Shown piece after piece: positions 14,266-50,906 of a stretch of 64,000 bases of DNA. Source of the DNA: Escherichia coli (GTDB taxonomy: Bacteria; Pseudomonadota; Gammaproteobacteria; Enterobacterales; Enterobacteriaceae); assembly GCF_044324875.1 (NCBI RefSeq), contig NZ_CP172185.1. One strand, given 5' to 3'. The position numbers were made by a program, and so were the translations under genes. Under the pieces are notes generated by a model that worked only from the letters and a program-made list of their open reading frames with translations, did no database searches and was not told the origin of the DNA. The first letter of the stretch is position 1. Every line of letters begins with the position of its first letter.

Positions 14266-14272
14266 GTTTCAT

Positions 14273-14311
14273 TGCCGGATGTACGCGCTTATTTAGCGTC
14301 ACATCCGGCAA
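14273..14311. repeat. REP-like palindromic element between convergent psuT and yeiL
   Basis: gccggatgt...acatccggca palindrome. Confidence 0.5.
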
Positions 14312-17452: not shown

Positions 17453-17507
17453 TGCGCGAGTTATGAGCCGGATAAGACGCGGTCAAGCGTCGAATCCGGC
17501 AACATTG

Positions 17508-32527: not shown

Positions 32528-33538
32528 ATGAGTGCGTTAAATAAGAAAAGTTTTCTTACTTACCTGAAAGAGGGCGGTATTTACGTCGTTCTTTTAGTTT
32601 TGCTGGCGATTATTATTTTCCAGGACCCAACATTTTTAAGTCTGTTGAACTTAAGTAATATTCTCACCCAGTCATCGGTGCGTATTATTATCGCGCTCGG
32701 TGTGGCAGGGTTAATTGTCACCCAGGGGACCGACCTTTCTGCGGGGCGTCAGGTAGGGCTGGCGGCAGTGGTGGCAGCGACATTATTGCAGTCCATGGAT
32801 AACGCCAACAAAGTGTTCCCGGAAATGGCGACGATGCCGATTGCGCTGGTTATTCTGATTGTCTGTGCCATTGGTGCGGTGATCGGTTTGATTAACGGCC
32901 TGATTATCGCTTATCTCAACGTGACGCCATTCATTACCACGCTCGGTACGATGATCATCGTCTATGGCATCAACTCGCTCTATTACGACTTTGTCGGGGC
33001 GTCGCCGATTTCTGGTTTCGACAGTGGCTTCTCTACCTTTGCTCAGGGCTTTGTCGCGCTGGGGAGTTTCCGTCTCTCTTACATCACCTTCTACGCGTTG
33101 ATTGCGGTGGCGTTCGTCTGGGTGTTGTGGAACAAAACCCGCTTCGGTAAGAACATTTTTGCCATTGGCGGTAACCCGGAAGCGGCAAAAGTATCTGGTG
33201 TCAACGTCGGCCTGAACCTGCTGATGATCTACGCGTTGTCTGGCGTGTTCTATGCCTTTGGCGGGATGTTAGAAGCCGGACGTATCGGCTCTGCCACCAA
33301 CAACCTCGGCTTTATGTATGAGCTGGATGCTATCGCGGCGTGCGTGGTAGGCGGCGTATCGTTCAGCGGCGGTGTAGGGACGGTGATTGGCGTGGTGACC
33401 GGGGTGATTATTTTTACCGTCATCAACTATGGCCTGACGTACATCGGCGTAAACCCATACTGGCAGTACATCATCAAAGGGGCGATTATTATCTTCGCTG
33501 TAGCGCTGGATTCACTGAAATACGCACGTAAGAAGTGA
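32528..33538 (+). CDS. mglC: Galactose ABC transporter permease
   Basis: 336 aa multi-TM. Confidence 0.93.
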   Translation: MSALNKKSFLTYLKEGGIYVVLLVLLAIIIFQDPTFLSLLNLSNILTQSSVRIIIALGVAGLIVTQGTDLSAGRQVGLAAVVAATLLQSMDNANKVFPEMATMPIALVILIVCAIGAVIGLINGLIIAYLNVTPFITTLGTMIIVYGINSLYYDFVGASPISGFDSGFSTFAQGFVALGSFRLSYITFYALIAVAFVWVLWNKTRFGKNIFAIGGNPEAAKVSGVNVGLNLLMIYALSGVFYAFGGMLEAGRIGSATNNLGFMYELDAIAACVVGGVSFSGGVGTVIGVVTGVIIFTVINYGLTYIGVNPYWQYIIKGAIIIFAVALDSLKYARKK

Positions 33539-33547
33539 TGTGATTGT

Positions 33548-33796
33548 GGGTATTGCCGGATGCGCTGCATCCGGCAATCGGTGCCAAATGCCGGATGCAA
33601 CGCTGGCGCGTTTTATCCGGCCTACAATGAGCGCAACATACTGATCTATATGGTTTTATATGCCGGATGCAACGCTGGCGCGTTTTATCCGGCCTACAAT
33701 GAGAACAACATATTGATTTATATGGTTTTGTAGGCCGGATAAGGCGTTCACGCCGCATCCGGCGACAGGAGCCAAATGCCGGATGCAACGCTGGTT
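33548..33796. repeat. REP/BIME cluster with tandemly repeated units
   Basis: Palindrome ttgccggatgcgctgcatccggcaa, then repeated gccaaatgccggatgcaacgctggcgcgttttatccggcctacaatgag units and taggccggataaggcgttcacgccgcatccggc. Confidence 0.75.
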
Positions 33797-35032
33797 TTAC
33801 AACGTTACCGGGTGTTCTTTCTCTCCCTTCTTAAACTTCACTTCTCCGAGATCAATACAACCCACCGGGCAGACGTGACCACAAAGCAGGCAACCAACAC
33901 ATTTCTCGGTATTACAATGCGGTGTACGGGTTTTCTCGCTCCATTCCATCGCCTGGTGACCGCCGTCGTAACAGGAAATATAACAGCGTCCACAGCCAAC
34001 ACATTTATCGAGGTTGATGTTGGGATAGACAATATAACTGCGGTCTAAATCTTCCGCCGGAACAATATTGTGATTCGCCAGACCTACCATATCCTGCAAC
34101 GAATCAAATCCCTGATCGGCGAGATAATGCGACAACCCGCTCGCCATATCTTCTACGATGCGATAGCCGTACTGCATAATGCCGGTGGTCACCTGCAACG
34201 TCGCTGCACCGAGCAATAAAAACTCTGCCGCATCTTCCCAGGTTTCGATACCGCCGATACCGCTGATCGGGAAATCGCGCAGCTCTGGATGGGTGCGCAT
34301 TTGCTGAATAAAGCGCAGGGCGATCGGTTTTACCGCTTTACCGGAATATCCGGAAATACTCGATTTACCGTTAACGATCGGCATACCGATTTTCTGATTA
34401 AGATCGATATTGGTGATGGATTTAACGGTGTTAATCGCCGCAATGCCATCTGCGCCGCCGCGCTTCGCCGCCAGCGCCACTTCGCACATATCACCGATAT
34501 TCGGCGTCATCTTCGCCAGCATCGGCAGCGTAGAACCGCGTTTCACTGCCCGACAATATTTTTCGACCAGCTCCGGGCTTTGCCCGACATCGCTACCCAT
34601 CGCATGAGAAGTCATTTGCGGACAGGAGAAGTTACACTCGATCATATCCGCGCCAGCTTCTTGCACCAGGCGCGCCAGCTCCTCCCATTGCTGCTCATTT
34701 TCCCCCATGATCGAAGCGATCAATACTTTGTCCGGGTAATCTTCCTTCAGCCGACGCAGGGCGGCCAGATTCTCTTCCAACGGATGTTCAGCAATCTGCT
34801 CCATATTTTTGAAGCCGATAAAACCGGTATCTTCTTTCACCAGATGATCAAAACGCGGCGAGACTTCGTTGGCGATAAAAAAGCCGATCGTTTTAAACAC
34901 CACGCCGCCCCAACCTGTGTCGTAGGCTTTGGCACACATCTCATAGCAGTTGCCTACAGGCGAAGAAGAGAGGCAGAACGGATTGGGAAACTTCACGCCG
35001 CAAAAAGTAATCGAAAGATCTTTCGTTAACAT
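33797..35032 (-). CDS. preA: NAD-dependent dihydropyrimidine dehydrogenase subunit (DHOD-like, C-terminal 4Fe-4S)
   Basis: Start at [12 protein letters not shown] (411 aa). Confidence 0.88.
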
Positions 35033-36660: not shown

Positions 36661-38656
<1,996 letters not shown>

Positions 38657-43992: not shown

Positions 43993-44108
43993 CGCAGTGA
44001 GGTGCGTGGATATTTCAATGGGTTAGGCCAGATAAGACACCAGCGTCGCATCAGGCATGGAACACCCGGTGCCGGATGTGGCGTGAATGCTTATCTGTGG
44101 CAACTGCT

Positions 44109-45444: not shown

Positions 45445-45617
45445 AAAGTTCTTTTGTGTTGCATTGCTGGCGTAAATGTCAGCAATGCAGCATTTCCTCA
45501 CGATTCTCCTTTGACGATCGCACTTTTTGCTCGTTATGATGGCGTCGCTAGCCTCAGTAAATCCTTACTCCGGCGGTGCGCAACCCGTGCGCGTGAACCA
45601 CTATCTGAATGCTCATC

Positions 45618-50797: not shown

Positions 50798-50807
50798 TGC
50801 TTTAGCA

Positions 50808-50833
50808 AGGGCGCGACGTTTGCGCCCTTTGCC
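50808..50833 (+). terminator. bglX terminator hairpin
   Basis: agggcgc-gacgtt-tgcgccct followed by ttgcc. Confidence 0.55.
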
Positions 50834-50871
50834 TGATGTTCATATCTTAACTTGCTGAATTTTCGCCCTTT

Positions 50872-50906
50872 GTAGGCCGGATAAGGCGCTCGCGCCGCAT
50901 CCGGCA
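50872..50906. repeat. REP element
   Basis: gtaggccggataaggcgctcgcgccgcatccggca. Confidence 0.55.

Follow-up and report, generated by a model that had tools for sequence, protein, structure and literature searches.

We examined the 258-bp spacer (33539-33796) that separates mglC from preA in a 64-kb window of Escherichia coli DNA, the window being the whole stretch of 64,000 nucleotides that was analyzed. The spacer lies between the convergent ends of the mglBAC and preTA operons, and sequence derived from repetitive extragenic palindromic (REP) units spans 33552-33794, wholly between the two stop codons. The element is a REP/BIME (bacterial interspersed mosaic element) cluster, and it is the orthologue of REP156 of E. 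coli K-12. By analogy with REPs studied elsewhere, the cluster probably acts as a set of 3'-end hairpins that insulate the two convergent operons, and this explanation as a whole, identity and role together, is likely. We favor such a transcript-level role because the hairpins are strong on both strands, the core of the cluster is conserved, the REP literature points in the same direction, and neither a sigma-70-like promoter nor a convincing hairpin-plus-U-tract terminator was found in 33300-34000. The cluster belongs to an already catalogued kind of E. coli intergenic repeat, and its sole unusual trait is a rare head-to-tail allele.

The initial annotation had described a REP-type palindromic cluster of about 250 bp at this place, and core enrichment, a family match and RNA folding all agree with that description. 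The REP core GCCGGATGC was found 11 times in the window against 1.05 copies expected, an enrichment of about 10-fold that was reached in 0 of 100 shuffles, and six of the 11 copies lie inside 33555-33786. When the region was folded as RNA, the z-scores were -7.8 for the plus strand and -10.2 for the minus strand, with none of 200 shuffles being equally stable. The family naRNA4 (Rfam RF02564), which comes from the Y and Z2 units of REP325 and is the only REP-derived family in Rfam, gave four matches in the cluster (58.2, 44.9, 42.0, and 33.5 bits; best E = 1.5e-9). The best of them, at 33554-33622 (+), did not reach the gathering score of 59.5 bits, and naRNA4 was absent from the gathering-level scan. 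This subthreshold match is best read as shared REP sequence and not as an naRNA4 gene. Within the naRNA4 consensus, the Y half is almost the same as the Y unit of the cluster, and the Z2 half can be aligned with the long units over their whole length.

The cluster contains four complete hairpins, with folding energies of -19.6 to -21.1 kcal/mol, plus a half unit adjoining the preA stop. The two Z2 copies and the Y unit are imperfect palindromes with internal mismatches and fold into stable stem-loops, as expected of REPs, which are imperfect palindromes of 20 to 40 nt; all three also carry the REP foot, GTAG in the Y unit and CTAC in both Z2 units. The short hairpin next to mglC is a perfect palindrome, unlike the imperfect stems of REPs, and the GTAG/CTAC foot is missing from it and from the half unit. 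Consistent with extragenic, multicopy REPs, a 461-bp query had a median of at least 35 places per genome among the matches listed for 5,425 genomes.

In K-12, the element between the convergent preA and mglC genes is catalogued as REP156, at 2236535-2236684 (Harris et al. 2026 supplementary tables, bioRxiv 10.64898/2026.03.23.713779). The cluster of the window and REP156 of K-12 MG1655 are alike in locus, flanking genes, y and z2 unit types, 14-nt linkers, a related long linker and an identical core at the preA stop. The K-12 spacer is 242 bp long and reads degenerate Z2 remnant, linker, Y, linker, Z2, linker, Y, linker, half-Z2, whereas the spacer of the window has 258 bp, with a short perfect hairpin 13 nt past the mglC stop and two direct Z2-linker units. 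For annotation, the region should be labeled as a REP/BIME element orthologous to REP156, and the 99-amino-acid (aa) open reading frame (ORF) that runs through it should not be called a gene.

Unit anatomy and BIME class

The units of the window allele are arranged in the order short hairpin, linker, Z2, long linker, Z2, long linker, Y, linker, half-Z2 (Table 1). In the short hairpin, designated Y*, the head arm is of the Z2 type and the tail arm of the Y type. The hairpin can be aligned with the Y half of naRNA4 minus its center and occurs in a 70-bp allele of the locus too. The length of the short linker, 14 nt, is constant in all alleles. Z2b/linker/Y and Y/linker/half-Z2 alternate in orientation as the BIME rule requires, but Z2a/linker/Z2b are in direct orientation, and this arrangement looks like a secondary rearrangement that broke the alternating-orientation rule. 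At the other end, the half-Z2 pairs with the tail arm of the Y unit to give a predicted hairpin in the 3' untranslated region (UTR) of preA. In all three E. coli alleles that were folded, this predicted hairpin has -20 to -24 kcal/mol and starts 5 to 9 nt past the stop.

Three classes of BIMEs serve as a reference. BIME-1 is made of z1 and y with a conserved L linker, often with a site for integration host factor (IHF), and occurs in single copy (Ton-Hoang et al., PMC3333891). BIME-2 is made of z2 and y with short linkers, in tandem copies (PMC3333891), and atypical BIMEs mix, as chimeras, motifs from BIME-1 and from BIME-2 and are present in multiple copies with variable linkers (PMC3333891). 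Judged from its sequence against these class descriptions, the cluster is placed as a BIME-2-like or atypical BIME. It is not placed in BIME-1 because its Z units are z2, several units are present and the long linker is locus specific: in a sensitive search, the long foot-to-foot linker had a median of 1 place per genome in 2,825 genomes. This locus-specific occurrence, together with the z2-type Z units, rules out the long linker as the L motif of BIME-1, and an IHF consensus in linker 2 is the only BIME-1 trait shared. The features of BIME-2 are found in the z2 and y units, in a 14-nt linker matching the naRNA4 (REP325) consensus and in the presence of one to three units across alleles. The description of atypical BIMEs also fits the architecture, with z2 and y units, short linkers and a long foot-to-foot linker, in multiple copies and with linkers variable in length and sequence.

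When compared with BIME-2 and REP325, the cluster has the same head-to-head y/z2 arrangement with a short linker, several units per locus and a copy number that varies between strains; it differs by one direct Z2 pair and by a foot-to-foot linker of 32 to 36 nt. With BIME-1 (RIB or RIP elements, which bind IHF), it shares a long linker (about 30 nt) that separates inverted REPs at their GTAG/CTAC feet, as well as the exact IHF consensus in linker 2. A genuine y/L/z1 element, useful for the comparison with BIME-1, was seen in Pseudocitrobacter vendiensis. As in the REPIN/RAYT system, whose TnpA(REP) is a Y1 transposase, the GTAG foot and stem mismatches that TnpA(REP) requires for binding and cleavage are present in the units, whereas the short hairpin has neither the foot nor a stem mismatch.

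The gene names mglC and preA and the coordinates given in the initial annotation were right, since the spacer occupies 33539-33796 and both flanking genes match the corresponding equivalog models (Table 1). The mglC gene ends with TGA (33536-33538) and is annotated as mglC in matching genomes. The preA gene, with preT upstream of it, ends with TAA (33799-33797), and the length of the annotated preA in relatives is 1,236 nt. None of the complete E. coli genomes was identical to the window, the closest being 99.1% identical over 25 kb. The mglC gene, the spacer and preA are together identical to those of the draft assembly GCA_050232825.1.

Table 1. Features at the mglC/preA locus, in window coordinates
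Feature	Position	Strand	Description
mglC, last gene of mglBAC	32528-33538	+	NCBIfam NF007014 MglC equivalog, E = 3.7e-193, full length
99-aa ORF	33489-33788	-	TTG start, internally repeated peptide; read through REP units, antisense to mglC 3' end
Short perfect hairpin Y*	33552-33578		12-bp stem, 3-nt loop, no GTAG foot; arms 100% complementary; -19.6 kcal/mol
44-nt direct repeat	33563-33606 (left), 33751-33794 (right)		89% identical, spacing 188 bp
Short linker 1, 14 nt	33576-33589		Head-to-head, BIME-2 type; AATCGGTGCCAAAT, aligns to naRNA4 Y-Z2 linker AAcGGUGCCGACU
Head-to-tail repeat, 2 x 72 bp (Z2 + long linker)	33588-33731		Direct-repeat search and TRF: period 72, 2.1 copies, score 264
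z2-type REP, copy a	33590-33625	+	CTAC foot 33622-33625; full-length alignment to naRNA4 Z2 half, compensatory changes; -20.5 kcal/mol
Long linker 1, 36 nt	33626-33661		Ends ATAT (Y-foot remnant), joins straight to next Z2 head
z2-type REP, copy b	33662-33697	+	Identical to copy a; CTAC foot 33694-33697; -20.5 kcal/mol
Long linker 2, 32 nt	33698-33729		Foot to foot; contains cluster's only exact IHF-consensus match, 33706-33718 (-), AATCAATATGTTG
y-type REP, opposite orientation	33730-33763	-	GTAG foot 33730-33733; near-identical to naRNA4 Y half; -21.1 kcal/mol
Short linker 2, 14 nt	33764-33777		GACAGGAGCCAAAT
Half z2 REP, head arm only	33778-33794	+	2 nt from preA stop; invariant in all nine architectures
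preA, last gene of preTA	33797-35032	-	NCBIfam NF006183 PreA equivalog, E = 4.3e-207

Alleles of the locus and origin of the head-to-tail repeat

The number of BIME copies at a locus varies between strains (PMC3333891). A comparison of unit copy number among strains, as proposed in the initial annotation, was run on 5,426 complete E. coli genomes. The K-12-type allele of 242 bp was carried by 2,850 genomes and a 70-bp allele, consisting only of the short hairpin, a linker and the half-Z2, by 2,510 (about 46%). The window-type allele of 258 bp was found in 44. The left junction of the window and its head-to-tail junction occurred in the same 44 genomes, and the noncanonical joining of long linker 1 to a Z2 head was, among the 5,426, seen in these 44 only. 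A single-copy precursor of 186 bp was not found among the 44 genomes with the window-type left junction, all of which carry the head-to-tail junction. Nor was any variation in copy number seen within the window-type lineage: the six alleles compared were all exactly 258 bp long, with 3 to 5 single-nucleotide polymorphisms (SNPs) relative to the window, and the two-copy state is therefore stable. As for the hosts, 29 of the 44 genomes came from poultry or other birds, such as APEC O2-211 and APEC O78:H4, and this avian concentration of the host metadata suggests that the 258-bp allele marks one lineage. The rare allele could act as a lineage marker, and the locus offers a clean natural example of BIME turnover.

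At least nine architectures of the locus were found across Escherichia, six of them beyond the three length alleles of E. coli. Escherichia whittamii and strain E69 have Z2, long linker, Y, linker and half-Z2; Escherichia sp. E1V33 has the same arrangement with the long linker cut to 11 nt, and Escherichia sp. MOD1-EC7003 has no Z2. The Escherichia albertii allele is K-12-like minus the second Y and its linker, and its long linker joins a Z2 head as in the window. A strain deposited as 'E. coli' SCPM-O-B-8794 has a full alternating array with three Z2 and two Y units. All nine architectures contain the same core, namely, a Y (or short-hairpin) arm, 14 nt, the half-Z2, 2 nt and the preA stop. 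In the remaining, variable part, the number of units and the linker differ freely between Escherichia lineages. In SCPM-O-B-8794, E. whittamii and E69, the stop codon of preA is TAG and coincides with the GTAG foot of the adjoining z2 REP, so that the foot appears to supply the stop codon. In E. coli proper, the stop codon is TAA and the 3' arm of the adjoining REP is missing, which leaves the half-Z2. In Klebsiella spallanzanii, a textbook intrinsic terminator (GCTGCCCCTAAAGGGGCAGC followed by TTTTTT) lies within 40 nt past mglC, at the place taken by the REP cluster in Escherichia; no REP is present and the downstream neighbor is not preA.

The locus had been called a recombination hotspot, and the three length alleles in E. 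coli together with the six further architectures in other Escherichia bear this out. The diversity of alleles could have arisen by recombination or slippage between the short GCCGGAT arms that adjacent units have in common, possibly with the help of TnpA(REP), the REP-associated transposase. The 188 bp by which the 258-bp allele exceeds the 70-bp allele are bounded by the 44-nt direct repeat. A one-step insertion or deletion between these two alleles was tried and rejected: the window has GCAACGCTGG as its half-Z2, against GCGTCGCTGG or GCGTCTCTGG for the 70-bp alleles, and because of this two-base difference the relation between the alleles is not a clean single event. The short hairpin of the 70-bp allele may consist of the head arm of a Z2 and the tail arm of a Y joined together, which would make it a collapsed Z2/long linker/Y unit.

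The two nearly identical tandem units described in the initial annotation are present, but their size, given as about 55 bp, was wrong, the actual repeat being 72 bp in 2.1 copies. The two 72-bp copies (33588-33659 and 33660-33731) are identical at 67 of 72 positions (93%). The 40-nt hairpin part is free of differences, all five being located in the linker (Fisher p = 0.014). In the window, the loops of both Z2 copies are CTGGCG, whereas the loop of copy 2 is CTTGTG in all five complete genomes with the same allele that were compared (differences at 33677 and 33679). The identical loops of the window could reflect either gene conversion in its lineage or the ancestral state.

The head-to-tail junction consists of the long linker, ending in the Y-foot remnant ATAT, then GCCGGAT and then the Z2 head. 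A duplication through unequal exchange between the GCCGGAT arms of Z2 and Y, which are 72 bp apart, is somewhat more likely than a deletion, and the single-unit architecture of E. whittamii (and of strain E69) is a candidate for its precursor. Under a deletion, which we regard as possible without preferring it, the head-to-tail pair would be what remained after a Y unit and its 14-nt linker, 48 bp together, were lost from an alternating three-unit array by slippage at GCCGGAT, between the foot arm of Y and the head arm of the next Z2. SCPM-O-B-8794 has such an array at the locus (Z2, linker, Y, linker, Z2, linker, Y, linker, Z2), the same odd junction of long linker and Z2 head is present in E. 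albertii, where it looks like the result of losing the second Y with its linker from an allele of the K-12 kind, and ATAT is retained at the junction where the foot of a Y unit (GTAG or GTAT) is expected. The divergence of the linkers also fits a deletion. The long linkers differ at 5 of 32 positions, with identical hairpins, and the sampled window-type alleles are only the above 3 to 5 SNPs away from the window in 258 bp; because the linkers diverged while these alleles differ little, old paralogues are suggested rather than a recent duplication. On the other hand, unequal crossing-over between the same GCCGGAT arms gives an identical junction, so the junction itself cannot discriminate between the two routes. 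A single-unit architecture that could be duplicated does exist in E. whittamii and E69, and the complete E. coli genomes of the census yielded no allele that combines three units with the short hairpin on the left.

Candidate functions of the cluster

According to the transcript-level reading, the cluster would be transcribed into the 3' UTRs of both convergent operons, as the REP literature implies. Its GC-rich hairpins could then block 3'-to-5' exonucleases and thereby protect both transcripts. They may also impede read-through, partly via Rho, and so insulate mglBAC and preTA from each other. Located 5 to 9 nt past the preA stop and 13 nt past the mglC stop, they might be close enough to dampen translation termination as well; translation can be lower where a REP is less than 16 nt away from the stop codon (PMC12306157). 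Experiments have shown that REP325 terminates transcription in a partly Rho-dependent manner and stabilizes mRNA, and the presence of REPs between convergent genes is correlated with both genes being expressed more highly (bioRxiv 10.64898/2026.03.23.713779). In the same work, a table lists an in vitro Rho-binding peak in the preA 3' UTR, 3 nt from REP156 (bioRxiv 10.64898/2026.03.23.713779). As to an intrinsic terminator, the only two terminator-like calls were misparsed Z2 arms followed by CGTTTTAT, with none on the minus strand, and this candidate was rejected.

Several points weigh against a transcript-level role. The Rho peak near REP156 is weak (log10 enrichment of 0.32), was obtained in vitro only and has no OverlappingBST entry (bioRxiv 10.64898/2026.03.23.713779). 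Genome-wide, terminal REPs show no association with longer mRNA half-lives. In addition, the 70-bp allele is all that about 46% of E. coli genomes have at the locus, and since these strains manage with it, the extra 188 bp may add nothing functional.

Alternatively, the cluster could be selfish or neutral DNA whose REP units proliferated and rearranged in a spacer that tolerates them between convergent genes, with the extra 188 bp having no effect on the host. The genome-wide result on half-lives fits this reading. The coexistence of the 70-, 242- and 258-bp alleles in one species, reported as being at high frequency, and the free variation of unit number and linkers in the variable part between Escherichia lineages fit the same explanation, and REPs have been proposed to be mobilized by TnpA(REP) (PMC3333891). 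We nevertheless consider it rather unlikely for the cluster. All nine architectures share an unchanged core at the preA stop, the potential to form a hairpin is kept in the alleles folded, and the two Z2 hairpins are identical while their linkers diverged. Constraint on the hairpins is suggested by this invariance of the core and by the identity of the Z2 hairpins despite linker divergence.

A stronger version of the transcript-level role would have the invariant core as a selected control of the 3' end and of translation termination for preTA and the variable part as a heritable dial on mglBAC, a proposal to which we give little credence. It relates to the position of the hairpins past mglC: the 12-bp hairpin lies 13 nt past the stop in the 70- and 258-bp alleles, whereas in the K-12 allele the first stable REP hairpin comes only about 60 nt downstream. 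If the proposal were true, about half of E. coli would differ from the other half in the 3'-end processing of mglBAC or in the output of MglC. The 70-, 242- and 258-bp alleles are natural allele swaps for testing how REPs tune 3'-UTR termination, decay and translation termination.

IHF and DNA gyrase had been named as ligands of such clusters in the initial annotation, and a main role in nucleoid structuring, with candidate IHF binding at the long linker and gyrase at the Y/short linker/Z2 units, was considered on this basis. Linker 2 contains an exact match to WATCAANNNNTTR (33706-33718), and IHF sites are frequent in the L linkers of BIME-1 (PMC3333891). The cluster has Y, short linker and Z2 units of the BIME-2 kind, and gyrase cleavage sites are overrepresented in BIME-2, mainly in y units (PMC6379681). 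That enrichment concerns a subset of BIME-2 elements, in which y is cut more often than z2 (PMC6379681). The exact IHF consensus occurs 3 times in the 64 kb against 3.4 expected, which is not significant alone, and linker 1 does not match it. Relaxing the motif to WATCAR gives an excess over the window as a whole (12 versus 4.8 expected) but no additional site in the cluster. Moreover, the long linker is locus specific and not the conserved L of BIME-1, and the Z units are z2, not z1. No data on IHF or gyrase at mglC/preA were retrieved, the locus being unmentioned in the RepRanger supplements and in the main text of PMC8407004. A main role at the DNA level thus appears improbable, and the statements on IHF and gyrase should be softened, the DNA-level claims being the weaker ones.

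The reading frames through the repeats almost certainly do not encode a real small protein. Two of them are open, the 99-aa ORF on the minus strand and a 57-aa ORF on the plus strand (33560-33733), and the 72-bp repeat preserves the frame; as the unit is a multiple of three, the peptide of the 99-aa ORF is itself repeated. This ORF has no match in NCBIfam or Pfam, and the 57-aa ORF has only a far-subthreshold match in these collections. The 99-aa ORF starts with TTG and runs antisense into mglC, no coding sequence is annotated in the spacer of the window-type RefSeq genomes examined, and most of its sequence is absent from the 70-bp allele (2,510 genomes) and different in the 242-bp allele. 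The view that this repeat-containing ORF is spurious, already taken in the initial annotation, agrees with all of these findings.

Other REP and RNA features of the window

Further REP-like sequences were noticed elsewhere in the window. The convergent yohF/yohD spacer has a decaying REP pair at 44028-44098, z2-like at 44028-44057 and y-like at 44070-44098. This pair corresponds to REP154 of K-12, which is listed with an overlapping Rho-binding peak (Harris et al. table). At 50806-50906, in what is by synteny the bglX-osmF spacer, there is a terminator-like GC hairpin (approximately 50806-50831) and, after it, one y-type REP whose foot is GTAG (50872-50906). The sanA-cdd spacer contains a y-type REP in degenerate form, GCCGGACAAGGCGTTCACGCCGCATCCGGC, at 37736-37765. 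REP-like hairpins were also found at 14271-14311 and 17465-17502, a few nucleotides from the stop codons of two paralogous genes for NupC-family nucleoside transporters (psuT and nupX by synteny), both of which end in the peptide ...IAGFFIGLA. The only RNA family of the window at the gathering level is the Peptidase-S11 RNA motif of Rfam (RF03039), at 45533-45613 (+) with 72.8 bits against a gathering score of 34.8. The motif lies just upstream of the position of pbpG, inferred by synteny, which encodes a D-alanyl-D-alanine endopeptidase.

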